Below are positions 1-10,558 of a DNA stretch of 10,558 bases, piece by piece. Each line of letters opens with the position of its first letter. Positions within the stretch are counted from its first letter, which is position 1. The notes under the pieces were generated by a model. That model was given only the letters and a program-made list of their open reading frames with translations. It was not told the origin of the DNA and searched no databases. The position numbers and the translations under genes are program-made. The DNA lies in the NCBI GenBank assembly GCA_016935475.1, contig JAFGQV010000187.1, forward strand, positions 1 through 10,558, read 5' to 3'. Source of the DNA: Methanosarcinaceae archaeon (GTDB lineage Archaea > Halobacteriota > Methanosarcinia > Methanosarcinales > Methanosarcinaceae).

Positions 1-36
1 AATTGTTCCATCTTCTAATCCTATTACTGCATTCAT
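1..36 (-). CDS. Possible N-terminus of carbamoyl-phosphate synthase small subunit (CarA), running off the window start (partial).
   Basis: The minus-strand frame is open from 186 down to 1 with no stop. An ATG at 36..34 gives MNAVIGLEDGTI..., which resembles the conserved CarA N-terminus (M-K-A-x-L-x-LEDGT). An upstream AT-rich element (aaatacttatactcc) is ~45 nt 5' of this ATG on the minus strand. Only 12 codons are visible, so the call is weak. Confidence 0.3.
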   Translation of the reverse strand, partial: MNAVIGLEDGTI

Positions 37-186
37 CTTGAGAACCTTCACATACATATCCCTGATGGAGTATAAGTATTTCGATGGCAGGAATGTTATG
101 AAATTGTATTGTTGTGCTTTGAAGGAGTATATGAAAAATATCAACGGACTGTTTCCGGATAGATGCAGCAGGATAACAGAAGCAGG

Positions 187-1236
187 TCAGAAACCCTTGG
201 TCGCCAGTTTAAAAATTATCAGGATCAAAAGAACAGCTCCCAGCAGAGCAGCGCCTGATATAAACAGTGAATAATCCTTCATGAATTCCTCGATTACACC
301 CTCTTCTGAAACTGTTTCGGTCTCTACCTCGGTTGGGGTGTATCCTATCTCTGAATCCGTGCCGTGAAGCGACATGACCCATATATTATAATCACCTGCC
401 TCATTCGAAACATAGACGATCTTTTCACCGTTCGGGTGCCATTCAGGTTGATTTTGCACCAGTTCGTTAAAGGTAAGCTGAAGGGCACCAGTACCATCGG
501 AATTCATGAGCCATATATCATAATTACCACTCCTGTCCGAGACAAAGGCGATCTTTGTGCCATCAGGGCTAAATACCGGATCAATGTTGTGGAATTCATC
601 TTCTGTTAATTGTTCCTGATGAATTCCATCCCTGTCAATTGTCCGGATATCGCCATATGATGAATATACAAGAGCTGTACCGCCAGGACTCCAGGAGGGG
701 GCACCTTCATCCCCGGCTGCATCCGTAAGCCTTACGGGATTCGAGCCGTCAGGGTCCATTATCCAGATGTCATAATTTCCGGACTTTTTAGAAAGATATG
801 CAACGGTTCTGCCGTCGGGGCTTGCCGCAGGGGATCGCTGGTCTGCATTCTTTGTCAGTTGCACCCTGTTCCTGCCATCCGGATCCATCATATGGATGCT
901 AACAAACTGGGTATTCGAAGAATCTGATGCAAAATAGATATTAGTACCGTCACTGCTAAAGCAGGGCTCACCATCCCAGATCACACTGTCATATATCTCC
1001 TTCTGGTTCGAGCCGTCCGAATTCATTGTCCAGATCGCCTGATCCGAGGTATACACAATTTTGGTGCCGTCCGGACTCCATGCTGGAGTGTTCTGGTTTA
1101 TGCCTGTAGTAAGCTGTATTGTTCCTTCAACTGAAATTGCAGCCATTGAAATGGGTAATATCAGTAAAAGGGTTACAGACACAAGGATGCATGTCTGAAA
1201 AACTCTTCCCACCATCGTAATTGCTTTATATCTCAT
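187..1236 (-). CDS. Secreted/surface PD40 (TolB-like) beta-propeller repeat protein with N-terminal signal peptide and C-terminal TM anchor.
   Basis: The N-terminus has a hydrophobic signal-like segment (VFQTCILVSVTLLLILPISMAAIS). There are at least seven repeats of the PD40 signature (SPDG(T/S)KI(A/V)(F/Y)xSxxxGNYDIW(I/L)MxxDGSxxxQLT). The C-terminus has a Thr/Glu-rich linker (TPTEVETETVSEEG), then a hydrophobic helix and KLATKGF. No canonical PGF motif is seen. Confidence 0.8.
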   Translation of the reverse strand: MRYKAITMVGRVFQTCILVSVTLLLILPISMAAISVEGTIQLTTGINQNTPAWSPDGTKIVYTSDQAIWTMNSDGSNQKEIYDSVIWDGEPCFSSDGTNIYFASDSSNTQFVSIHMMDPDGRNRVQLTKNADQRSPAASPDGRTVAYLSKKSGNYDIWIMDPDGSNPVRLTDAAGDEGAPSWSPGGTALVYSSYGDIRTIDRDGIHQEQLTEDEFHNIDPVFSPDGTKIAFVSDRSGNYDIWLMNSDGTGALQLTFNELVQNQPEWHPNGEKIVYVSNEAGDYNIWVMSLHGTDSEIGYTPTEVETETVSEEGVIEEFMKDYSLFISGAALLGAVLLILIIFKLATKGF

Positions 1237-1278
1237 GACATTGACACAGTTTCAAATCTGAATCATTTACCTCAAAAA

Positions 1279-2976
1279 TCATTCGAATTTAGTCCCGCAC
1301 ACCGAACAGAACTTCTCACCTTCACCTTTCTCTTTCCCACACTGTGGACAGGTTTTTGGTTCATCTTTTTCGACTTTTGATTTATACACAAAACTGTCTT
1401 TTACCTGTGTACCGATGCTATCACCATAATTGTAAATGTTCTGCACCATGGCAGAATCTATGAGACCTTTTACCAGTGTTCGCTTTTCGACCTCTTCAAG
1501 AATGCCGTGATAGAATCCGATCAGTGCTTCCTCGGTCTCTGCCCATGCCTTGATTATGAGTCTTGACTTATTCGTGCCGCCAACGACCTCGATCTGTGCA
1601 GCGTATTTAAGGTCCTTTACGCCAATTCCATAGAACCTTGCCACACCGTTATACATCTGGGGACTGGAAGATACCTCAGGTTCGAACATGAACATGTTCA
1701 TGTCCTCTATCACCCTTGATGCCATACCAAACAACGTTTCAGCCGGAATTGATATCTCCCGGGTTGTTTCCTCGGTCTTGACAAGATGAGTGATTATGTT
1801 TCTCCATTCGGTTATTGTGATCTCCTTGAGCTTCAGAAGCGGACAGATCACGCTGAGCGATTTTGTTTCAAGGTCGATCTCCTGGCGTTTCTTGGTGCTG
1901 TAATCATAGTAATTAACCCTGCCGGAAACATTGCAGTCTCCGCATTCGCCGGTAGGTCTGATCTCAAAGGTGACGGTTTTACTCTCACAGGGTTCGAGCA
2001 TAGAAATGGTTTTTTCGCTGTCGCTCAAAAGGAATACATCAGGAACAAAAAGGTGAACTTTGACGTCGCTGATAGGTTCAGATGTGGGATTTTCAACCTT
2101 GACCTTATAGTTGATCGTTGCACCTTTATATCCGAAAGCCGAGGAGGTTACCAATTTATCAGATGTATCGATTGCTTGCAAATCCGGTTCTGGTTCCGGA
2201 GCAAACGTTGGTTCTGGTGTTCTTGGTGGCTCTGGTGTTTTTGCGGGTTCTGGCGTTTTCGCTTGTTTTTTTCTGGCAGCATTCCTTTTTCTTGCTTTTC
2301 GAATACCTCTTATCATAAACAAAAAAAAGAACAACGATAACAACAAAAACAAAAGACCCAAAGCCTCTTCATCGGAAGAATCCTGTGCTGTGATCCCATT
2401 ATTCCAGTCTGTTTCAATAACCCTTGTATTGTCAACTGCAATTCCCTCTTTTTCGAGTGTTTGTGAAAACTCTGCTACATCATTGCTTGTAACATCAACG
2501 TACCCGAACGCATCATAATAATCCCATTTAGATAGTTCGATTTCATGCAGTCCGGTAGTTGTCTGGATCTTTATTGGGGTGGTGCCTTGATAAATACCAT
2601 CAAGATATACATCTGCACCATCAGGATAGGAAGTGACTGAAATGTACCCTGTGCTCAGTTTCTGCGCCAGGATTGCTTCAACATACGTAAATTCACCGGA
2701 TTCCACAGATATTTGCTCTAAATAATCATCGTAACCTGAACTTCTGATTTTGACCTTATGCGTTCCAACCGGAACGCCATCAAACCAGACCCAATCAGAT
2801 CCGGTCTGCCCATAGTACGTACCGTCAATATAGATATCCGAATATACCTGGTCAGACCAGACCGCAACAGAACCGGTTTGAGTTACAGTCGGAGCACATG
2901 CCACATTGGCATTCAATGCTATGACCAAAAATAAGATAATTGCTATCTTGATGGAATGTTCAATTCGTTTTGTCAT
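1279..2976 (-). CDS. Type-I membrane protein with extracellular PEGA domains, a TM helix, a KTPEP-repeat linker and a cytoplasmic ~290-aa module ending in a C-terminal zinc ribbon.
   Basis: Signal peptide MTKRIEHSIKIAIILFLVIALNANVA. Two PEGA-like repeats (VTSYPDGADVYLDGIYQGTTPIKIQTTTGLHEIELSKWDY; SDIYIDGTYYGQTGSDWVWFDGVPVGTHKVKIRSSGYDDY). Hydrophobic TM LGLLFLLLSLFFFLFMI, followed by a basic stop-transfer RKARKRNAARKKQAK. PEP-rich repeats KTPEPAKTPEPPRTPEPTFAPEPEP. The cytoplasmic domain is paralogous to the C-terminal part of the 6790..8289 protein. The terminal zinc ribbon is CPQCGKEKGEGEKFCSVCG. An AT-rich promoter-like element (aaaaatataataatattaatt, minus strand) lies in 2977..3035. Confidence 0.8.
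   Translation of the reverse strand: MTKRIEHSIKIAIILFLVIALNANVACAPTVTQTGSVAVWSDQVYSDIYIDGTYYGQTGSDWVWFDGVPVGTHKVKIRSSGYDDYLEQISVESGEFTYVEAILAQKLSTGYISVTSYPDGADVYLDGIYQGTTPIKIQTTTGLHEIELSKWDYYDAFGYVDVTSNDVAEFSQTLEKEGIAVDNTRVIETDWNNGITAQDSSDEEALGLLFLLLSLFFFLFMIRGIRKARKRNAARKKQAKTPEPAKTPEPPRTPEPTFAPEPEPDLQAIDTSDKLVTSSAFGYKGATINYKVKVENPTSEPISDVKVHLFVPDVFLLSDSEKTISMLEPCESKTVTFEIRPTGECGDCNVSGRVNYYDYSTKKRQEIDLETKSLSVICPLLKLKEITITEWRNIITHLVKTEETTREISIPAETLFGMASRVIEDMNMFMFEPEVSSSPQMYNGVARFYGIGVKDLKYAAQIEVVGGTNKSRLIIKAWAETEEALIGFYHGILEEVEKRTLVKGLIDSAMVQNIYNYGDSIGTQVKDSFVYKSKVEKDEPKTCPQCGKEKGEGEKFCSVCGTKFE
2185..2265 (-). repeat. In-frame ~15-nt tandem repeats encoding (K/R)TPEP x3 plus PEP-rich linker, immediately cytoplasmic to the TM helix.
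   Basis: On the plus strand the repeats are ggttctggtgttctt / ggtggctctggtgtt / tttgcgggttctggcgtt. The translated peptide is KTPEPAKTPEPPRTPEPTFAPEPEP. Confidence 0.7.
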
Positions 2977-3035
2977 TGATAGTATTTACTCAATTAATAT
3001 TATTATATTTTTGCACCACACTGTCCACACTTTTA

Positions 3036-3254
3036 TCAGGCGTAAATCAATCTGCCCTTTGGTGTTGGAATGCTCCGTCCCAGTTCCCTGGCGGTTTCGA
3101 TCCATTCCTCGATCACGATAAGGGCGTTTCGAACTGCTTCTTTGTATGTCCTGCCGTCTGCCATACAACCCGGGAGTTCCGGTACTTCCACAATATAGAC
3201 ACTATCGTCTTCACTCCAGTAAACGACCAGTTCATATTTTATATCTTCTGCCAT
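3036..3254 (-). CDS. HicB-family (UPF0150/RNase-H-like fold) antitoxin-like protein.
   Basis: The 72-aa product YELVVYWSEDDSVYIVEVPELPGCMADGRTYKEAVRNALIVIEEWIE matches the HicB N-domain signature (hhhhhxxEdGgYxaxvPdLPGCxsxGxTxEEAlxnxxEAIxl). An SD GGAGAA lies 8 nt upstream of the ATG. No HicA-like ORF is adjacent. Confidence 0.65.
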   Translation of the reverse strand: MAEDIKYELVVYWSEDDSVYIVEVPELPGCMADGRTYKEAVRNALIVIEEWIETARELGRSIPTPKGRLIYA

Positions 3255-3266
3255 GCTCAGTTCTCC

Positions 3267-3452
3267 TTAAGAGTAAAACTCCACGCCACACTTTGAGCAG
3301 AACCGCTCTCCCTCAACTCTCTCCTTCCCGCACTGCGGACAATTTTCACACCGCTTCCGACAATCGAGCACACAAACCACCACTACAACTTCGCCCCACA
3401 CTGCCCGCAGAACTTGGCATCTACTGGAATTGTTGCCCCGCACTCGGGACAT
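3267..3452 (-). CDS. Small Cys-rich double zinc-ribbon protein. 61 aa from the ATG, or ~37 aa if it starts at the GTG at 3380.
   Basis: Seven Cys are present: CVLDCRKRCENCPQCGKERVEGERFCSKCG. The C-terminal ribbon is identical at 14 of 22 residues to the ribbon at the end of the 1279..2976 protein. The ATG-initiated form overlaps the 3' end of the upstream SPFH gene by 70 nt. GTG codons lie immediately after that gene's stop. The stop at 3267 is 12 nt from the HicB start, with an SD in between. Whether it is translated as a separate protein is uncertain. Confidence 0.4.
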   Translation of the reverse strand: MSRVRGNNSSRCQVLRAVWGEVVVVVCVLDCRKRCENCPQCGKERVEGERFCSKCGVEFYS

Positions 3453-4666
3453 TTTTTCACAGCTGGACCCTTAACACCCTGCGCCGCGCCCATCATCCCG
3501 GCATCCAGTTCCTGCCGCCTGTATGAATCCGCACGCTCCCGGTCTTCAACATCCATCATGAACTGGACCTTATCTTCCTTTGCCCGGGCTTCAGCTTCCC
3601 GTATCTTTGCGAGGGCTTCGAGTTGTTCGGGTGACATACCGCCAAGTTCCCGACCCTGTACTATGGTACTGGCAACATCCGAACCACCTTTCTCGGTGAT
3701 CGTATTCAGGTACTCCATGTCACGGGAATGTTTTCGGTCGGTCATGTCTTCCTCAACTTCCAGATCAGCTCGTTTTGCCCCCGTCTTCGCTTCTTTCCAT
3801 GTTTTGAACGTCTCGATCGCCTGCCGTGCCTCCGCTGCATCCGCTTCATTTTCTATACCGGAGATATCAGCCTTAATGCGTGCCTCTTTGATCTTCTCTG
3901 CACGCTCATGCTCCCTCATAGCTGTTTCGGGTGCAAGCCTGCTCCTGACATCTGCAACACCCACGCGTCCCGTGCGTTCAAGGTCGCCTTCGGTGGTAAG
4001 AGTTTCCATATCCTTGAGCTCTTCTTCGGTCTGGAACTTGTTCGATGCCTCAAGGACCTCGCCGTAGCTTCCAAGGTCCCACTGTGCAGTGTAGCGCAGC
4101 AGCTCAAGTCCCCACATGGAAAGCGATGTCTTAAGTTGCATCTCAAGCTCGTTCTCCATCTTTAGCTGGAGATTGCGGTTGCCATAAATGTTCTCAATGT
4201 TCACCTGCTTGATCTCAGGCTCCAGTACCCGCGTGATCGTCTCGCTTTCAAGACGGCCATAGATATCCTGGATAGAAAGTGCACGCTCTCCTTTTTTATC
4301 GGGCGTCGTATATGCAAAAAGCATCTGGAAAAATTTTTTCGGGTCCTGCATCTTAAACCGCAGGATACCACTGCAACCAACCTTCTGGTTATCTGCTGTC
4401 CACATCTCAGCATGCTCCCACTCAAGGTCCTTTGGAGACGTGTCCATAAGTGCAACATCAACATCCTTCCCGATGTTGCCCGGTTTGAGTATGCCGCCCA
4501 CACGCAGTTTACCACTGTCGATTATCTCTTCGACCGTACCGTTCTTGATTATGGCAGCTTTTTCGTTAGGCGAAAGTATTATCGACTTGCTGAACAATCC
4601 ACCTACATCTTTTTTTGGGATCACCCTTGCAATATCATCTGATTGTTTTTTCCATTTGAATACCAT
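3383..4666 (-). CDS. SPFH/band-7 (flotillin-like, YdjI-type) protein with a long charged coiled-coil region and a C-terminal zinc ribbon.
   Basis: The N-terminus FKWKKQSDDIARVIPKKDVGGLFSKSIILSPNEKAAIIKNGTVEEIIDSGKLRVGG matches the N-terminal signature of the YdjI-like SPFH family (W...D.IvwkfP...i..gSqLiV.e.Q.AvF..dG...d.f.pG...L). A ~200-aa E/R/K/A-rich helical region follows. The end is KKCPECGATIPVDAKFCGQCGAKL. An SD AGGTG lies 8 nt upstream of the ATG at 4666. Confidence 0.7.
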   Translation of the reverse strand: MVFKWKKQSDDIARVIPKKDVGGLFSKSIILSPNEKAAIIKNGTVEEIIDSGKLRVGGILKPGNIGKDVDVALMDTSPKDLEWEHAEMWTADNQKVGCSGILRFKMQDPKKFFQMLFAYTTPDKKGERALSIQDIYGRLESETITRVLEPEIKQVNIENIYGNRNLQLKMENELEMQLKTSLSMWGLELLRYTAQWDLGSYGEVLEASNKFQTEEELKDMETLTTEGDLERTGRVGVADVRSRLAPETAMREHERAEKIKEARIKADISGIENEADAAEARQAIETFKTWKEAKTGAKRADLEVEEDMTDRKHSRDMEYLNTITEKGGSDVASTIVQGRELGGMSPEQLEALAKIREAEARAKEDKVQFMMDVEDRERADSYRRQELDAGMMGAAQGVKGPAVKKCPECGATIPVDAKFCGQCGAKL

Positions 4667-4723
4667 ATTTACGACACCTGTTCCTTTCGATAGCTTGTTT
4701 GCTTAGAAAGATATTGGGTAAGT

Positions 4724-4736
4724 ATTATATATAATG
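4724..4736. promoter_or_regulatory. Shared AT-rich TATA-box-like element (tattatatataat) in the divergent intergenic region between the SPFH gene and the RHH/ESCRT-III operon.
   Basis: The 127-bp intergenic region 4667..4793 is strongly AT-rich. The near-palindromic element is placed ~25-30 nt upstream of plausible TSSs on both strands. Confidence 0.35.
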
Positions 4737-4738
4737 TT

Positions 4739-4758
4739 TTCTATTGTATACAATAGAA
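4739..4758. promoter_or_regulatory. Perfect 20-bp palindrome TTCTATTGTATACAATAGAA, a candidate operator (likely for the adjacent RHH protein), between the TATA element and the RHH start.
   Basis: The sequence equals its own reverse complement (10+10, no spacer). It lies 36 nt upstream of the RHH ATG at 4794. Confidence 0.5.
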
Positions 4759-4793
4759 GCCAGTTTGACTATAATTATAACGGTGGAGACCAA

Positions 4794-4949
4794 ATGGGAA
4801 TATCATATCCGGTAAGTGCAAGAGTATCAGAGAACATAAAACAATACCTAGATGAATTGGTTGAGAGGGGGATCGCAATTAATACTTCTGAAGCATTAAA
4901 AATATGTATAAGGTATGCTAAACAAAAGAAAATGGAGGATGAAATATAA
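4794..4949 (+). CDS. Ribbon-helix-helix (CopG/Arc-like) DNA-binding protein, 51 aa, likely autoregulator of the downstream operon.
   Basis: MGISYPVSARVSENIKQYLDELVERGIAINTSEALKICIRYAKQKK shows a beta-strand with alternating hydrophobics followed by two helices. An SD GGTGGAG (4783..4789) lies 5 nt before the ATG at 4794. The track's upstream ATG at 4734 lacks an RBS and would start inside the promoter. The stop overlaps the next start (TAATG). Confidence 0.6.
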   Translation: MGISYPVSARVSENIKQYLDELVERGIAINTSEALKICIRYAKQKKMEDEI

Positions 4950-5512
4950 TGGGACTTGGAAATCCATTCAAAAAAGTATCACCTGAAGAACTGAAAACAA
5001 AACTCGCGATATCCGAACAGAGATTATCTGCACGGGAATCTGAACTCTCCAAAAAACGCCAGAAATCACGTGAACAAGCAAAGGAAGCACTGGCAAACGG
5101 TAACGACCGTGAGTTTAGGGTTGCATCCCGCAGGTATTCCATGGTTGAGGGACAGGTCAATACCATCAGCAGCATGGTGGAGATGGCACAATCCATGACA
5201 GATGTGATTGAGATGCAGACAGGGCTTAAGGAAGTTGTTGATATCGGGAACGATCTTGGCAAATGGCAAAAACAGCTTGGATTTGACACGAGTAAACTGG
5301 AGAGTGCAGTTACCAACATCCGCACCTCCATGGAGAAAGTGAACACTGCAACCAATATGATGACATCTTCAATGGATGCAGCCATGGCTGGCGGAACTGA
5401 ACTTAGCGATATGCAGGATTCACTCAGGGGCGAGTTGCTGGCAGAACTTAGCGGTGAGACGGCATCCAAGGATAAGCTATCCAAGAAGATCGAAGAAGAG
5501 ATGGAAGAGTGA
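4949..5512 (+). CDS. ESCRT-III/Snf7/PspA-superfamily protein (CdvB/CHMP-like), 187 aa.
   Basis: MGLGNPFKKVSPEEL... parallels the CHMP/Snf7 N-terminus (MGLFGK..PKE). The basic helical N-half (KKRQKSREQAKEALANGNDREFRVASRRYSMVEGQ) and the acidic, Met-rich helical C-half follow the charge asymmetry of the Snf7 domain. The protein ends in an acidic amphipathic helix DKLSKKIEEEMEE, which is MIM-like. A strong SD GGAGGA lies 9 nt upstream. The gene is followed by a MIT-AAA ATPase gene. Confidence 0.55.
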   Translation: MGLGNPFKKVSPEELKTKLAISEQRLSARESELSKKRQKSREQAKEALANGNDREFRVASRRYSMVEGQVNTISSMVEMAQSMTDVIEMQTGLKEVVDIGNDLGKWQKQLGFDTSKLESAVTNIRTSMEKVNTATNMMTSSMDAAMAGGTELSDMQDSLRGELLAELSGETASKDKLSKKIEEEMEE

Positions 5513-5600
5513 ATTGGTGCTATGGTTGGGTGTGAACCTATGGCATTATTATTTTACCATATCCACTGAAACCACATAGCCACAGCAATAAATAACGGAT

Positions 5601-6767
5601 GTGCCCCATTTGACATCTACAAGTTCACTCGCGGCCCAGGCCCGCGGATATGCAAAAGCTGCCAGGACCTTAGAGGATGAGAACAAATACGAGCGAGCGA
5701 GAGAACTCTACCTCAAGGCAGCTAAATTATACAACGAAGCATCAAAGATCGCAACCGACAAGACCGATAAGAACACCCAGCGCGACCTTGCAGAGCATCT
5801 TCTTGCAAAAGCGCAGTCCCTCAAAAGCTCAGGTGCCCACGATTCAGTTTCCGGGATTAGCAGTGGAAGCGGTGGTAGCGATTCTGACGAGTCTTCGTTA
5901 TCAAAGGATGACCTTATCCTGAAACAGATCCCTAACATCGGATTTGATGACATCGGCGGTCTTGAATCCGTAAAAGAGGACATCAGGAAGGCGATCATAT
6001 ACCCCTTCACCCACAAGGACCTGTACAAGATGTACGGACAGAAAGCAGGCGAAGGCATTCTCCTCTACGGACCTCCAGGCTGCGGTAAGACCATGATGGC
6101 AAAGGCTGCTGCTAAGGAATGCGGCGCGGACTTTATCAGTGTCAAGACGAGTAGTATTGTGAGCAAATGGGTGGGAGCGTCCGAGAAGAATGTCAAACAG
6201 GTTTTTGAGACTGCGCGCCAGTGTGAGAAATCCATCATCTTTTTTGATGAGATCGATTCAATAGCCGGAAGGCGCAGCGAGAGCGAGGATTACGCCAAGC
6301 GCGTGGTTAACGAACTCCTCGCCCAGATGGACGGGGTCGATACGGCTGATGACAATCTCCTTATCCTTGCAGCCACCAACGAGCCGTGGGCGATCGACCC
6401 GGCTCTGCGGCGCCCGGGGCGTTTCAGTAAACTGGTGTTCATACCTGAACCGGACCTCGATGCCCGTGCAGCAATATTCAAGCTCAACCTGAAAGGGCGA
6501 CCGATTTCGGATGATGTTGATGTCAACCGGCTTGCCGGGATCACAGAATCGTATTCAGGTGCGGACATTTCTGCTATCTGTAAAGAAGCAGCGGATATTC
6601 CGCTGGGCGAGGCGCTTCGTGGCGGTGAGGCACGGAAGATCGCAATGAAGGATTTCGTAACAGTACTGCAAGGTCGGAAGCCTTCTATCTTAAGCTGGTA
6701 TGTGGAAGCCCGGGCGGAAGTTAGGAAGAGCGGGGAAGAAGCAGTGTTTGAGGGGATAATGGGATGA
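5601..6767 (+). CDS. Vps4/CdvC-like AAA+ ATPase (meiotic clade) with N-terminal MIT-like three-helix domain.
   Basis: The start is a GTG at 5601, the only in-frame start before the domain. The N-terminus AAQARGYAKAARTLEDENKYERARELYLKAAKLYNEASKIA...LAEHLLAKAQSLK resembles the Vps4 MIT domain (A..LA..A...D..G.YeeAl.lY..a...f.......  ....eYl.RAE.LK). An S/G/D-rich linker follows. The AAA core has Walker A GPPGCGKT, Walker B IIFFDEID, an SRH LAATNEPWAIDPALRRPGRF and a sensor-2 region. The protein ends shortly after the AAA lid, so no Vps4 beta-domain or C-terminal helix is evident. Confidence 0.8.
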   Translation: MPHLTSTSSLAAQARGYAKAARTLEDENKYERARELYLKAAKLYNEASKIATDKTDKNTQRDLAEHLLAKAQSLKSSGAHDSVSGISSGSGGSDSDESSLSKDDLILKQIPNIGFDDIGGLESVKEDIRKAIIYPFTHKDLYKMYGQKAGEGILLYGPPGCGKTMMAKAAAKECGADFISVKTSSIVSKWVGASEKNVKQVFETARQCEKSIIFFDEIDSIAGRRSESEDYAKRVVNELLAQMDGVDTADDNLLILAATNEPWAIDPALRRPGRFSKLVFIPEPDLDARAAIFKLNLKGRPISDDVDVNRLAGITESYSGADISAICKEAADIPLGEALRGGEARKIAMKDFVTVLQGRKPSILSWYVEARAEVRKSGEEAVFEGIMG

Positions 6768-6789
6768 TGATTATAGTGAGTGTTTTTTA

Positions 6790-8289
6790 ATGAATGTTAT
6801 ACTTACAAATCAAATGAAAAAGATACTGCATGGTGAAAAAGCAGTAGCTATTGCATCAGCATCTATGAACAAATCAGTATTTGATACTGATGTAGGTGTC
6901 AGTGATTCAGAACTCTTAAATAACGTGGTTTCAACAGTCAACGAAGTATTTGAGAATGATAAAAAAATTAGTGGTTCAGTGCTTTTAACAGATAGTCGTA
7001 TCATACTATATTCAAAACGGACTTTAGGTGGTTACTATTTCAAAGATTTTCGAATAAATTCGATTAACGGTGTCACATTCAAAAATGGATTTTTAAAATC
7101 TAGCATGATATTTCATACAAATAACGGTGATACTAAAATAAATATGCCAGATAAAAACGCCGCAAAAAAATTAAATATCGCTCTGGAAACACGCATATCT
7201 AAATGGAAAAAAGAAGCAATTGCCATTGAATCTTATGACGCCGTAGAAATAACATCACATAAACCCACAAAACATTCAGACAACATTAATTCAGACCTTT
7301 TAATATCCCGCGAAACCGAATTTTACCAGGGTTTTATTCGATTAAAGATGTCTGTCACCAACACTTCATCCTTTGTAGTTAACGATGTCACTCTCGATTT
7401 TGATTATGATAACAACTTATTAAGAATAGACAGACACGAACCTGATTATCAAATTGAAAATGGAAAAGTCATATTTGGAAATATATCTGTCGATTCTTCA
7501 AAAACCGTTGCAATTTACTTTGATCCAATGATGTGCTCAAAAGGTACAGACATCAACTGCCAGATAAATTACAAAGATGCAAAAGGGCAGCTCCAAACTA
7601 CTCAGATGGAATCAAAGAAAATTAGTGTGGTTTGCCCGATAATGGAAACAGAATCTGATATAAACATCGGCAGACTTAAAGAGTTCATCAAAAAACTGCC
7701 GTATAGTGACAGCAAGGTGTATCAATTACAGAACAATTATGATATCGATATTCTAAAAAATATCTCACGGGAAGTTGTACAAAAACACAATGTTAAGCAC
7801 ATAAGGACTCTTATTACGAAAGATGAAAAAATGTGTGAGGTATGGTACTATGGCAAGACCAAAGTGCACAGCCATGATATTGTCATTAAAATTACAATTT
7901 TAAGCGAAACACAGAACATTGAATTGTTTGCTGCAACTCAAACTGTAGAATCTCTTGCCGGACTGCTGGCAGAAGTAGGACGTGAGTTGAAGAGTGCTAT
8001 TGAAAGTAAGATCACCGGCAATGTTCAGCAAGTCATCAATGTGTCTATCAAGGATTCTATTGTCCAGCGAAGCAACCTTTTGAGTTATTGTGATATTGAC
8101 GGTAATTGCAGTGGGGATGTTGTTATTGAAGACAGTCTTGTGATGCGTTCGAATATTAGTTCGGATGCTGAAGTTAAGGACAGTGTAGTGCAAAAAACTA
8201 ATGTCGGTAATATCTTTTGTACGGCTTGTGGAGAGGCTGTGCCGGCTGGTGCAAAGTTCTGCATGGAATGTGGGGAGAGGTTAAAGTGA
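6790..8289 (+). CDS. Multidomain protein with four parts: a PH/GRAM-like N-domain, a two-Cys beta-sandwich-like domain, KDSxVxxSN repeats and a C-terminal zinc ribbon. Paralog of the cytoplasmic part of the 1279..2976 protein.
   Basis: Residues ~60-125 (SGSVLLTDSRIILYSKRTLGGYYFKDFRINSINGVTFKNGFLKSSMIFHTNNGDTKINMP) fit a bacterial-PH/GRAM-like strand pattern. Residues ~178-283 align to residues ~283-380 of the PEGA protein (SKTV..F...P..C..G.D.N....INY.D.......+.....K.+SV+CP). The repeats are IKDSIVQRSNL / IEDSLVMRSNI / VKDSVVQKTNV. The end is CTACGEAVPAGAKFCMECGERLK. The first ~1.1 kb is markedly AT-rich relative to its neighbours. Confidence 0.55.
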   Translation: MNVILTNQMKKILHGEKAVAIASASMNKSVFDTDVGVSDSELLNNVVSTVNEVFENDKKISGSVLLTDSRIILYSKRTLGGYYFKDFRINSINGVTFKNGFLKSSMIFHTNNGDTKINMPDKNAAKKLNIALETRISKWKKEAIAIESYDAVEITSHKPTKHSDNINSDLLISRETEFYQGFIRLKMSVTNTSSFVVNDVTLDFDYDNNLLRIDRHEPDYQIENGKVIFGNISVDSSKTVAIYFDPMMCSKGTDINCQINYKDAKGQLQTTQMESKKISVVCPIMETESDINIGRLKEFIKKLPYSDSKVYQLQNNYDIDILKNISREVVQKHNVKHIRTLITKDEKMCEVWYYGKTKVHSHDIVIKITILSETQNIELFAATQTVESLAGLLAEVGRELKSAIESKITGNVQQVINVSIKDSIVQRSNLLSYCDIDGNCSGDVVIEDSLVMRSNISSDAEVKDSVVQKTNVGNIFCTACGEAVPAGAKFCMECGERLK

Positions 8290-8320
8290 ATGAAACGAAT
8301 TATAACTATAGGGAGGATAA

Positions 8321-8722
8321 ATGAGCAACCTAGAAGAAGGCATGCGGTGGTTCAAACAAAGTGAACGCGACCTCGGCGCAGCTGCGAGTCTGCGGGATAG
8401 TGAATACTACGAATCTGCATGTTTCCATGCGCAGCAGGCGTCGGAAAAAGCACTCAAAGGACTGCTCTATGCGAAAGGGTACAGGTCTGTAATAACCCAC
8501 TCCACGCGAGAATTATACAAACATGTAAAAAAACTGATCCCGGACTTTAAGGATTATGACCATGCATCGATGAATCTTGACAAACACTACATTCCACCGC
8601 GCTACCCGGATGCATTCCCCTCCGGCTCACCCTATGAATATTACACAAAAGAGGATGCAGACAAATGCATAAACTATGCAGGATTGATATTAGCCGAAGT
8701 GAGAAACTTCATGAGCGAATAA
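8321..8722 (+). CDS. HEPN-domain protein (toxin partner of the HEPN/MNT module).
   Basis: FHAQQASEKALKGLLYAKG is a typical HEPN helix. An R-x4-H motif (RELYKH) is present. An SD GGGAGG (8311..8316) lies 5 nt upstream of the ATG. The 3' end overlaps the downstream MNT gene by 58 nt. Confidence 0.75.
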   Translation: MSNLEEGMRWFKQSERDLGAAASLRDSEYYESACFHAQQASEKALKGLLYAKGYRSVITHSTRELYKHVKKLIPDFKDYDHASMNLDKHYIPPRYPDAFPSGSPYEYYTKEDADKCINYAGLILAEVRNFMSE

Positions 8723-9024
8723 AACAGTTCGTGTCAAGACTCGCATCCCGTCCGGGCATCAAGCAGGTCTACCTGTTCGGCTCGGTCGCGCGGGACGATT
8801 TCAATGAAGGCAGCGACATAGACATTGCTATCATAGGGGATTTCAAAGAGCGATTTTTAGATAGGGGTGACGCGTTTTTTGAAATGACCGATCTTCCGAT
8901 AGAACCGCTCTGCTACACCGAATCTGAATTTGAAACAATGAAGAAGAGCAATAATCCCTTTGTAAAAGAGATATTGAAAGGGAAGATACTGTTCGATCAT
9001 CAGAAAAGGCGAGGTTTCACATGA
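8665..9024 (+). CDS. Minimal nucleotidyltransferase (MNT, Pol-beta superfamily), antitoxin-type partner of HEPN.
   Basis: LFGSVARDDFNEGSDIDIAII matches the G[SG]x9-13Dh[DE]h NTase signature. The true start may be a non-ATG codon downstream of 8665. The stop overlaps the next gene's start (ATGA at 9021..9024). Confidence 0.8.
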   Translation: MHKLCRIDISRSEKLHERIKQFVSRLASRPGIKQVYLFGSVARDDFNEGSDIDIAIIGDFKERFLDRGDAFFEMTDLPIEPLCYTESEFETMKKSNNPFVKEILKGKILFDHQKRRGFT

Positions 9025-10199
9025 CCGACCACGAAACAGACCCAAAAACCCTCCAGCAAAATAACCGCAAAAAGGCGATCAACAACCTGCGCGATGTGCA
9101 TGCGGCAATCGAAAGACTGATGAACAAAACCTACCGCCAGCAGGATGTGACCGCAAGTTCCGCACTCAGGCAGATGAGGACAAGGGTAACTGCGCTGCTC
9201 TCGGAGATGGAGAACACAGGTCTTGACACATTCAGCGGACGCGAGGGTACACTGGATGAGTTCTACAACGCTGAGGAGCATTTCACCAAAAGCTCGACCA
9301 GACTGATAAAAGCAGTCGAAGATGCTGAGGTCACCGATGAAAAGGTCGATGTGTTTTCACTGGAAGATCTTGTCGATGCACTGGAGAGGGGTTTCAACAA
9401 CAGGATCATTCTCACACAGGAACACCTGAAAGAATACGAAAAACTACGAACGGAGTCCCGGAAAGAAGAAATTACCGAGGAGCCCTTCAAGGCTGTGCAG
9501 GATACTGTATCTGAAACCGTGGCGGATGCAGAAGTTGAAGAGATATCCGAAGATATTGATTCATCAATGCCACCGGAACTCTATAATTACATCAACATCC
9601 TTGAGCAGAAATACTCGACCTACAGACCCGAGATATCAAACAGCGGCGATTATATTGCAAACAAATCATGGAAAGTGGATACAGCAGAGGACGGTATTCG
9701 AGCTGTTGTCAAGGACGGGATGTTCAAAACACTACTTGTTTTTGAGACATACTGGATGCCACTGGATAATGTGCAGGATACTGTAAAGTTCGTGCAGTCG
9801 CAGGCGAATGCGGTTGGCAAGAACCAGTACAAAAGCCTGTGTCTCATTAACAGTGTATGGAACAATGAGGTCCAAAACTGGGCAGGAAGTTTCGTTCATC
9901 AGCGTATGGTTCTATTCCTGTATGAACTTGAAAGCGGGACACTCATTTTTAATGGAACATCAAAGACTGCAGACAACTTTAAGTTCTGGCACTCTACTGA
10001 CAATCAGAAAATGACACTTGCCGATGAAATGGCTGGTTTTATTGAGGATACGGAATACTTCACGGTCACTGACGTTATGTCACGTTTTGGCTTGAACTCC
10101 CGCGGGGCAGAGATGTACCTGGATGAACTGGTAAAGAAAGGAAAACTTGTTGATGTGGGACTCGAAAAACCGAAATACACAAAATCAAAACTCAGCTGA
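9021..10199 (+). CDS. Hypothetical 392-aa protein translationally coupled to HEPN-MNT. It has three parts: a helical N-region, an acidic linker and a C-terminal winged-helix-like domain.
   Basis: An SD GGCGAGG precedes the ATG. The acidic stretch is EEITEEPFKAVQDTVSETVADAEVEEISEDID. The C-terminus YFTVTDVMSRFGLNSRGAEMYLDELVKKGKLV resembles a wHTH. No catalytic motif was recognised with confidence. Confidence 0.6.
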   Translation: MTDHETDPKTLQQNNRKKAINNLRDVHAAIERLMNKTYRQQDVTASSALRQMRTRVTALLSEMENTGLDTFSGREGTLDEFYNAEEHFTKSSTRLIKAVEDAEVTDEKVDVFSLEDLVDALERGFNNRIILTQEHLKEYEKLRTESRKEEITEEPFKAVQDTVSETVADAEVEEISEDIDSSMPPELYNYINILEQKYSTYRPEISNSGDYIANKSWKVDTAEDGIRAVVKDGMFKTLLVFETYWMPLDNVQDTVKFVQSQANAVGKNQYKSLCLINSVWNNEVQNWAGSFVHQRMVLFLYELESGTLIFNGTSKTADNFKFWHSTDNQKMTLADEMAGFIEDTEYFTVTDVMSRFGLNSRGAEMYLDELVKKGKLVDVGLEKPKYTKSKLS

Positions 10200-10207
10200 G
10201 GATTCCA

Positions 10208-10558
10208 CTATTTACCAAGGAACTCACTGACCTTTTGCTTCAGCGTCTCGCTCAATATTTTACCATCAACCTTGCCCCTGAATTCTGCCATAACAACTCC
10301 CATCAATGGACCAACCGCAGCCATACCTTTTTCCCTTACGAAGTCCTGACGGCTCGCCACCACACTTTCAATGAACTTCTCGATCTGTGCAGTATCGATA
10401 CCTGTTAATCCGAGGTTGGCTACTGCTTCCTTTGCGCTCAATGACGGCTCCTTTGCAAGCAAGCGCAGGATCTTCTCAATTCCCTCCTTTGCAACCTCGC
10501 CACCTGCAAGGATGTCGAATAACTGGATGAAATGCTCATCCTTGAGGTTATCAACCTC
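10208..10558 (-). CDS. C-terminal part of a GatB/YqeY-domain protein (aspartyl/glutamyl-tRNA amidotransferase subunit B or E). Partial; continues beyond the window end.
   Basis: The minus-strand frame is open from 10558 to the stop at 10208. The product ...LAKEPSLSAKEAVANLGLTGIDTAQIEKFIESVVASRQ...GPLMGVVMAEFRGKVDGKILSETLKQKVSEFLGK resembles the helical GatB/YqeY tail domain. It is convergent with the 392-aa gene, with only an 8-bp gap. Confidence 0.5.
   Translation of the reverse strand, partial: EVDNLKDEHFIQLFDILAGGEVAKEGIEKILRLLAKEPSLSAKEAVANLGLTGIDTAQIEKFIESVVASRQDFVREKGMAAVGPLMGVVMAEFRGKVDGKILSETLKQKVSEFLGK

Follow-up and report, generated by a model that had tools for sequence, protein, structure and literature searches.

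Probable Meth_adaptin-type ESCRT core operon, headed by a ribbon-helix-helix gene, in a Methanosarcinaceae archaeon

Methanosarcinales divide with FtsZ, and an apparent ESCRT-III/Vps4 gene pair in one of them raises the question of which system these genes belong to and what it may do. The pair lies in a DNA stretch of 10,558 nucleotides from the metagenome-assembled genome of a Methanosarcinaceae archaeon (assembly GCA_016935475.1, contig JAFGQV010000187.1, positions 1 to 10,558), referred to here as the window. A first-pass annotation made from the sequence alone had described there a ribbon-helix-helix (RHH) gene, followed by genes for an ESCRT-III-like protein and for an ATPase joining a MIT domain to an AAA core. 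Open reading frame listing and domain scans found all three open reading frames where they had been described (Table 1). These analyses revealed that the window encodes just one ESCRT-III subunit, of Snf7-like type, together with a Vps4-like ATPase that joins a MIT domain to one AAA+ cassette, and that it holds a set of conserved accessory genes. With a probability of roughly 0.78, the region is the core operon of an archaeal ESCRT system of the Meth_adaptin type, working by the mechanism proposed below.

The 187-aa protein taken alone matched nearly the whole Pfam Snf7 model at 17.8 bits, under the gathering cut-off of 27.3; single-sequence phmmer against the PDB gave chance matches only, and a narrow profile of 32 family sequences gave only weak matches to the N-terminal part of IST1. 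The family comprises 79 representative clusters (E ≤ 1e-3) among 1.84 billion proteins, and a broader profile built from 50 of these sequences was run against the PDB. Its best matches, near full length, were the ESCRT-IIIB of Heimdallarchaeota (9ftl; 2.8e-8), a Lokiarchaeal Vps20/32/60-like protein (9fn1; 4.4e-7) and yeast Snf7 (2.4e-6), followed by CHMP1B (6e-5), CdvB (4e-4) and CHMP3 (4e-3). The fold consists of an alpha1-alpha2 hairpin followed by shorter helices. By these profile matches the protein is identified as an ESCRT-III, in agreement with its earlier placement in the Snf7/CHMP/PspA superfamily. PspA_IM30, PspA and Vipp1 were absent from its Pfam and PDB matches up to an E value of 10. 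Homologues of 185-200 aa occur in Methanolobus, Methanomethylovorans, Methanococcoides, Methanohalophilus, Methanosalsum, Methanoperedens and one Thermoplasmata metagenome-assembled genome. The N-terminus is basic-hydrophobic (MGLxxFxKK / MxLFKKK) even in distant family members, which hints at membrane binding. The C-terminal helix, ending ..DKLSKKIEEEMEE, resembles the MIT-interacting motif MIM1: its pattern (D/E)-L-x-x-K-(I/L), likewise conserved in distant members, equals the first half of the consensus (D/E)xxLxxRLxxL(K/R), and the last hydrophobic position of MIM1 is not conserved in the family.

The ATPase measures 388 aa, or 385 aa from the TTG at 5610 that NCBI calls as its start. Pfam AAA (3.5e-45) and AAA_lid_3 (7e-11) were matched, as was the full-length MIT model with an E value of 0.0068, below the cut-off. 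MIT was also matched in 20 of 26 homologues (best 1.2e-5), and a profile of the first 80 residues matched the MIT structures of calpain-7 (1.2e-3) and of Sulfolobus and human Vps4 (0.17-1). The AlphaFold2 model showed a MIT three-helix bundle at aa 7-77 (nt 5619-5831; helices 7-26, 30-50 and 54-77), a disordered linker (aa 78-104), a single AAA+ cassette (aa about 105-345) and a C-terminal helix (aa 366-377) in which W366 is invariant. The MIT-like bundle noted in the first-pass annotation is thus confirmed. Of the two elements that it had found missing from the ATPase, the beta-domain insertion is indeed absent from the model, while the C-terminal helix is predicted to be present. The NCBIfam CdvC model aligned end to end with the protein at 245 bits, under its cut-off of 650.

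In Methanoperedenaceae, orthologous MIT-AAA proteins are extended at the C-terminus by a diadenylate cyclase (DAC) domain, which spans aa 434-555 and passes the gathering cut-off with an E value of 3.6e-16. The fusion was found at positions 10001-11683 of locus L046 (Ca. Methanoperedens, JAPMTX010000139.1), several kb away from the RHH/ESCRT-III pair on one contig, and also in P0159 and P0162; it suggests a link between c-di-AMP and the ESCRT system.

Forty loci fetched from reference genomes were set beside the window for a survey of the neighbourhood. The gene order is largely common to about 40 genomes of Methanosarcinaceae and Methanoperedenaceae, in which ESCRT-III and the ATPase show identities of 45-98%: appendage/PEGA-zinc ribbon (minus strand), SPFH-zinc ribbon (minus strand), RHH, ESCRT-III, MIT-AAA and coiled-coil/winged-helix, often with a second appendage-zinc ribbon gene. 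The RHH, ESCRT-III and MIT-AAA genes themselves mostly stand in the same order, which answers the question of neighbourhood conservation raised earlier; in several Methanoperedenaceae loci the ATPase gene lies beyond the fetched flank, and one of these has it elsewhere on the same contig. Together, the family-profile matches of ESCRT-III, the domain evidence for the MIT-AAA protein and the conserved neighbourhood uphold the presence of an ESCRT-III/Vps4-type pair in a euryarchaeon.

This gene set, in almost the same order, corresponds to the Meth_adaptin ESCRT system (Makarova et al., 2024, mBio 15:e00335-24; PMC10936438 / PMC11188069). Its exemplar in Methanosalsum zhilinae comprises WP_013898571 (appendage and zinc ribbon, arCOG15284), WP_013898572 (coiled coil and C-terminal winged helix-turn-helix), WP_013898573 (Vps4, arCOG01307), WP_013898574 (ESCRT-III, arCOG00454), WP_013898576 (SPFH), ProX and WP_013898578 (appendage-transmembrane-GOLD), and the tables of the same study include Methanohalophilus ESCRT-III and Methanolobus appendage proteins (Makarova et al., 2024). 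Five exemplar proteins have orthologues in the window, and M. zhilinae also has the RHH gene and the promoter palindrome described below. Identities between the two are 82% for RHH, 76% for ESCRT-III, 66% for the ATPase, 50% for the SPFH-coiled-coil-zinc ribbon protein, 48% for the appendage-zinc ribbon protein (residues 152-491) and 31% for the coiled-coil/winged-helix protein over its full length. The window differs from the exemplar in having PEGA instead of GOLD in its membrane-spanning adaptor, with the order reversed, a bacterial-PH module at the N-terminus of its soluble adaptor, inserted HEPN/MNT and HicB genes, and no ProX gene. Since gene set and order are orthologous to the published locus, the finding is already known from comparative genomics: the window is a further member of a catalogued system, and the novelty that the first-pass annotation had seen in the arrangement is not retained.

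No ProX/OpuAC-type protein was found among the open reading frames of the window, and ProX is probably an optional part of the Meth_adaptin locus. The ProX/OpuAC gene of M. zhilinae (L045 5534-7420) is called with 628 aa in the GenBank record and is shorter in RefSeq (about 275 aa). One part of the 628-aa form shares 25% identity with the appendage-like region found in the 499-aa protein of the window, and the osmolyte-binding ProX may thus itself be fused to an adaptor domain.

The AAA core of the ATPase raises the question of whether it derives from Vps4 or from Cdc48. The best PDB sequence matches and the top 50 Foldseek matches were all to p97/Cdc48 D2. BLASTP gave 233-246 bits to archaeal Cdc48 D2, 181-222 bits to D1 and 194-202 bits to vertebrate VPS4, while NCBIfam scores were 269 bits for CDC48, 245 for CdvC and 244 for PAN. 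In the alignment, GPPGCGKT and the RRPGRF of the second region of homology (SRH) are Cdc48-like, NEPW and RF(S)K are VPS4-like, and SKWVG is common to both. The meiotic-clade core assigned at first reading is therefore not supported, as the SRH is RRPGRF and not of the RR-RF form, the beta-domain is lacking, and the nearest relatives in sequence and fold are p97/Cdc48 D2. All of this would also fit a Cdc48-derived unfoldase that gained its MIT domain independently, a "Vps4" by convergence and no orthologue of CdvC/Vps4, as would the VAT-N domain that stands in place of MIT in the sister Halo_adaptin clade (Makarova et al., 2024). Such an origin is judged unlikely, given that a published tree rooted with Cdc48 nests the clade, including the M. 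zhilinae orthologue, inside Vps4 (arCOG01307; PMC10936438/PMC11188069), that NEPW and RF(S)K are shared with VPS4 and that the alignment with the CdvC model is colinear. A neighbour-joining tree of our own, built from four groups (the ATPase family, vertebrate VPS4, archaeal Cdc48 D1 and D2) without PAN, FtsH, katanin or CdvC, separated the family and VPS4 from D1 and D2 at 100/100; this result agrees with a place inside Vps4 but is trivial and carries no information, as D1 and D2 are sister groups and there were no further outgroups. Cdc48, p97 and VAT likewise lack the beta-domain, and the window ATPase differs from them in having one AAA cassette and a MIT domain instead of the double-psi-barrel N domain. 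Its family also has its gene adjoining an ESCRT-III gene, save for the loci where the ATPase lies beyond the fetched flank.

Compared to the CdvB/CdvC system of Sulfolobales and other TACK archaea, the window likewise has an ESCRT-III gene adjoining a MIT-AAA gene, and both products match their Cdv counterparts as described above. It differs in lacking CdvA, in having one ESCRT-III paralogue without a winged-helix extension, in the CdvC equivalog score of 245 against 650, and in a host that is expected to divide with FtsZ. Cytokinesis in Sulfolobales is driven by ESCRT-III and Vps4, and RHH regulators govern division genes in Sulfolobales and haloarchaea, so that a Cdv-like division machine, or an essential late-abscission factor alongside FtsZ, might be considered. 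This role is very unlikely for the present genes: no match to CdvA/PRC-barrel was found in the scanned window proteins or in the conserved neighbourhood, FtsZ is the expected division protein, and the ESCRT-III family is small (the 79 clusters mentioned) and was recovered from few lineages, namely a handful of Methanosarcinaceae genera, Methanoperedenaceae and one Thermoplasmata genome, and thus looks like an accessory function. The ESCRT machinery of Asgard archaea and eukaryotes supplied the top matches of the ESCRT-III protein in both profile and fold comparisons, namely Heimdall ESCRT-IIIB, a Loki Vps20/32/60-like protein and yeast Snf7; on the Vps4 side, the MIT domain, the pore loop SKW(V/L)G and NxPW are shared. 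The window lacks ESCRT-I, ESCRT-II and ubiquitin genes, and neither the beta-domain nor an SRH of the RR-RF form is present in its ATPase; moreover, its ESCRT-III ends in a helical, MIM1-like motif, whereas the Snf7 class has a proline-rich MIM2.

The most conserved protein of the locus is the 51-aa RHH protein (71-88% identity), whose gene immediately precedes that of ESCRT-III in 41 of 41 Methanosarcinaceae/Methanoperedenaceae loci, its stop overlapping or abutting the ESCRT-III start; the gene is absent from the Thermoplasmata locus. In the window, the overlap TAATG of the first-pass annotation was read directly (...GAA ATA TAA TGG GAC), and a Shine-Dalgarno-like GGTGGAG at 4782-4788 precedes the ATG at 4794; a start at the longer ATG (4734) is unlikely, because homologues measure 51-52 aa. 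Pfam RHH_1 matched the protein with an E value of 0.006 (16.9 bits, under the gathering cut-off of 20.5) and the C-terminal region of NCBIfam AbmR with 1.8e-5, and the pattern SYPVSARVSE...GIAINTSEALK fits a beta-strand and two helices with a G-x-(S/T) turn.

Upstream of this gene, a T(A/T)TATATA(T/A) element is found at the matching position in nearly all related loci and is the presumed promoter of the RHH/ESCRT-III/ATPase operon. Four nucleotides past it stands TTTTC(C/T)ATTGTATACAAT(A/G)G, which in the window forms a perfect 20-bp palindrome. Methanosarcinaceae, Methanoperedenaceae and M. zhilinae keep the element TTTTC(C/T)ATTGTATAC... at this distance behind the TATA-like sequence, and Methanomethylovorans has a diverged copy. 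The 10-bp core of the palindrome occurs once in the window, although at least one copy was also present in 56 of 200 shuffles, which is not beyond chance; the weight of the palindrome comes from its conservation across genera and not from its single-copy core. This conserved palindrome points to the RHH protein as a putative regulator of the operon, and the palindrome is likely to be an autorepression site that it would bind. Autorepression is suggested by the arrangement of a small RHH gene just ahead of a cytoskeletal gene, as in haloarchaea, where cdrS lies 3 nt upstream of ftsZ2 (PMC8406309). By their descriptions, aCcr1 of Sulfolobales and CdrS of haloarchaea are also RHH proteins of about 50-60 aa with membrane-division genes as targets, whereas the present RHH protein would act on an ESCRT-III/Vps4 operon, in an organism expected to divide with FtsZ. 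The text of Makarova et al. (2024) does not mention RHH, CopG, ribbon-helix-helix, transcription or the palindrome, and the small gene that separates ESCRT-III from SPFH is left out of its locus table. The RHH gene and its conserved DNA palindrome are the only undescribed parts of the present locus.

Under the mechanism proposed for the system, ESCRT-III would attach to the membrane from the cytoplasmic side by means of its basic-hydrophobic N-terminus and then polymerise, with the SPFH scaffold and the zinc-ribbon/appendage adaptors recruiting or organising it. The MIT domain of the hexameric ATPase would dock on the MIM1-like C-terminal helix of ESCRT-III (L-x-x-K-I), and the ATPase would pull ESCRT-III subunits through its pore (SKWVG loop), leading to polymer turnover and membrane deformation or scission. 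The RHH protein would be translationally coupled to ESCRT-III, and its putative autorepression would tightly restrain a polymer that could be toxic, perhaps in response to stress. In the cell, the system would serve membrane remodelling outside primary cytokinesis, either in vesicle/protein sorting, the latter being the proposal of Makarova et al. (2024), or in membrane repair.

Several points weigh against this reading. The function of every member of the system is inferred, and the Pfam matches of the window proteins to Snf7, MIT and RHH lie under their gathering cut-offs. The terminal motif of ESCRT-III fits the MIM1 consensus only in part. In its AAA core the ATPase resembles Cdc48 D2 no less than VPS4 and has the Cdc48-type RRPGRF, and therefore orthology with canonical Vps4 rests on the published tree. 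Finally, the promoter element of Methanomethylovorans has diverged, yet its RHH beta-strand is unchanged, which weakens the assignment of the palindrome as operator.

The same machinery might serve in a PspA-like repair of membranes under envelope or osmotic stress rather than in vesicle/protein sorting, with SPFH recruiting ESCRT-III to damaged or stretched membrane under the control of RHH and c-di-AMP. The SPFH partner recalls Bacillus subtilis, in which an ESCRT-III-superfamily gene (PspA/Vipp1) is linked to that of the SPFH-family protein YdjI, which may recruit it to the membrane and is reported as necessary for membrane localisation of PspA (cited in PMC11188069). An osmolyte-binding ProX/OpuAC in the M. 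zhilinae locus, the DAC domain fused to the ATPase in Methanoperedenaceae and a tight RHH control, which suggests inducible expression, all point the same way. However, the ESCRT-III protein matches Snf7-type profiles and not PspA_IM30, PspA or Vipp1, it is accompanied by a dedicated MIT-AAA ATPase that is missing in Psp systems, ProX is missing from the window and most loci, and the DAC fusion is confined to one lineage; stress repair is thus a live alternative, though a doubtful one. A more specific version, which can be offered only as tentative and rather improbable, would have the RHH-controlled Meth_adaptin system act as a c-di-AMP-wired membrane repair device for osmotic or envelope stress instead of constitutive sorting, and would make it a third archaeal case, after aCcr1-cdvA and CdrS-ftsZ2, in which an RHH protein governs cytoskeletal genes for membrane remodelling.

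Table 1. Features of the 10,558-nucleotide window, with coordinates, strand and basis of assignment.
Feature	Position	Strand	Basis or remarks
TolB-like PD40 beta-propeller protein	187-1236	minus	N-terminal signal/transmembrane segment, C-terminal transmembrane helix
PEGA x2 (outside), transmembrane segment, Ig-like/appendage-like region, zinc ribbon protein	1279-2976	minus	Pfam PEGA 2.3e-25, zinc ribbon
HicB-like antitoxin	3036-3254	minus	domain scan
SPFH/Band_7, coiled coil, C-terminal zinc ribbon protein	3383-4666	minus	Pfam Band_7, Zn_Ribbon_1
TATA-box-like element TATTATATATAAT	4723-4735	plus	direct reading of sequence
Perfect 20-bp palindrome TTCTATTGTATACAATAGAA (core TTGTATACAA, 4744-4753)	4739-4758		palindrome scan
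51-aa RHH protein	4794-4949	plus	Pfam RHH_1 (below cut-off), NCBIfam AbmR C-terminal region
187-aa ESCRT-III (Snf7/Vps20/32/60-like) protein	4949-5512	plus	family-profile matches
388-aa Vps4-like MIT-AAA ATPase	5601-6767	plus	Pfam AAA, AAA_lid_3, MIT (below cut-off)
Bacterial-PH, Ig-like/appendage-like region, zinc ribbon protein, 499 aa	6790-8289	plus	Pfam bPH_3, Zn_Ribbon_1
HEPN	8321-8722	plus	Pfam HEPN 7.9e-31
MNT nucleotidyltransferase	8665-9024	plus	Pfam Polbeta 2.4e-14
392-aa coiled-coil, globular, C-terminal winged-helix protein	9021-10199	plus	M. zhilinae orthologue
gatE, 3' end only	last in gene order, running off window end		

The SPFH and zinc-ribbon proteins that the first-pass annotation had placed on both sides of the operon were recovered with profile support. 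The SPFH gene, divergent from the RHH operon, encodes matches to Band_7 (33.1 bits, cut-off 23.6) and Zn_Ribbon_1 (33.3 bits), and full-length orthologues lie at the same position in Methanosarcinaceae/Methanoperedenaceae loci wherever the contig extends far enough; in L042 and L043, weaker matches over part of the protein lie at other places. The 499-aa adaptor matched bPH_3 (38.4 bits, cut-off 23) and Zn_Ribbon_1 (28.7 bits), and the C-terminal half of the PEGA-zinc ribbon protein, which is kept across loci, is paralogous to it. Pfam Alpha_adaptinC2 reached an E value of 0.09 at best on window proteins, and the appendage fold of the two adaptors is a label taken from Makarova et al. (2024). 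The 392-aa coiled-coil/winged-helix protein is present in almost all loci and gave generic winged-helix matches only; a kinship with ESCRT-II (EAP30, E 0.0045, below cut-off) was considered, but no likeness beyond the generic winged helix was found.

The N-terminal module of the 499-aa adaptor (aa 1-150, nt 6790-7240) varies by genome. The window has a bacterial PH domain there, whereas Methanolobus has a transmembrane segment with Ig-like repeats, L035 a beta-propeller, L001 and L047 a domain resembling sulfatase-modifying factor, and M. zhilinae and L032 an "uncharacterised" domain. Such variability would fit an exchangeable head that binds cargo or membrane. Loci of the Methanolobus type have an extra gene of about 420 codons between the ATPase/adaptor and coiled-coil/winged-helix genes (L009 13594-14859, L007 11922-13184, L021 11838-13085 and others), the product of which has N-terminal transmembrane helices and repeated Ig-like/CARDB-like domains and is absent from the window. 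The TolB-like propeller protein adjoins the system and is outside the conserved neighbour set. Neither Rfam families nor tRNAs were found in the window, the 88-nt spacer between the ESCRT-III and ATPase genes showed no significant RNA structure (z -0.05), and a scan for bacterial-type promoters and terminators was not informative for an archaeon.

The HEPN/MNT genes sit between two system genes and have no homologues there in other Methanosarcinaceae loci, which hold other genes; this toxin-antitoxin pair is a variable insertion and not a core part of the system. Together with the neighbouring HicB gene it could suggest an anti-phage or abortive-infection device, the more so as a HepT/MNT pair occupies the same slot of a Methanoperedens locus and the ATPase has generic matches to the defence ATPase IetA. 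PADLOC, however, returned for the window only generic AAA (IetA, TRIP13) and MNT matches and nothing for the other seven proteins, among them the RHH, ESCRT-III, SPFH, appendage and winged-helix proteins; the IetA matches reflect shared AAA+ similarity and are far weaker than those to Cdc48 and CdvC, and the cargo of the slot differs by genome. A defence function is therefore extremely improbable, and the preference for membrane remodelling over defence expressed in the first-pass annotation is maintained.

At 9021-9024, the stop of the MNT gene runs into the start of the coiled-coil/winged-helix gene that follows. The slot between the appendage-zinc ribbon and coiled-coil/winged-helix genes collects toxin-antitoxin genes in several genomes: the HepT and MNT genes of Methanoperedens (L046 1984-2807) are not homologous to those of the window, and the closest relative has two PIN-type pairs (L005 7031-9631). 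The HicB-like gene lies between two conserved system genes and has no recognisable adjoining HicA partner. Next to it, a 61-aa open reading frame (3267-3452, minus strand) reaches into the 3' end of the SPFH gene but is read in a different frame; its terminal zinc-ribbon motif CPQCGKERVEGERFCSKCGVEF closely resembles the C-terminus of the PEGA-zinc ribbon protein, CPQCGKEKGEGEKFCSVCGTKFE, with a DNA similarity of about 75-80% over short stretches only, and it is possibly a remnant from insertion of the HicB cassette.

ESCRT systems beyond the TACK and Asgard archaea bear on the origin of the eukaryotic sorting machinery, and the last archaeal common ancestor has been argued to have had a system about as complex as Meth_adaptin (Makarova et al., 2024). 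The window adds nothing categorically new to this picture. The core of its ATPase, a mosaic of Cdc48 and Vps4 features, is relevant to the origin of Vps4 from Cdc48-like ancestors, and the lineage-specific adaptor heads (PH, PEGA, propeller, sulfatase-like) and the DAC fusion hint at a diversity of cargo and signals. With a translationally coupled, conserved RHH gene and a well-defined palindromic site, the regulation of this system becomes directly testable.

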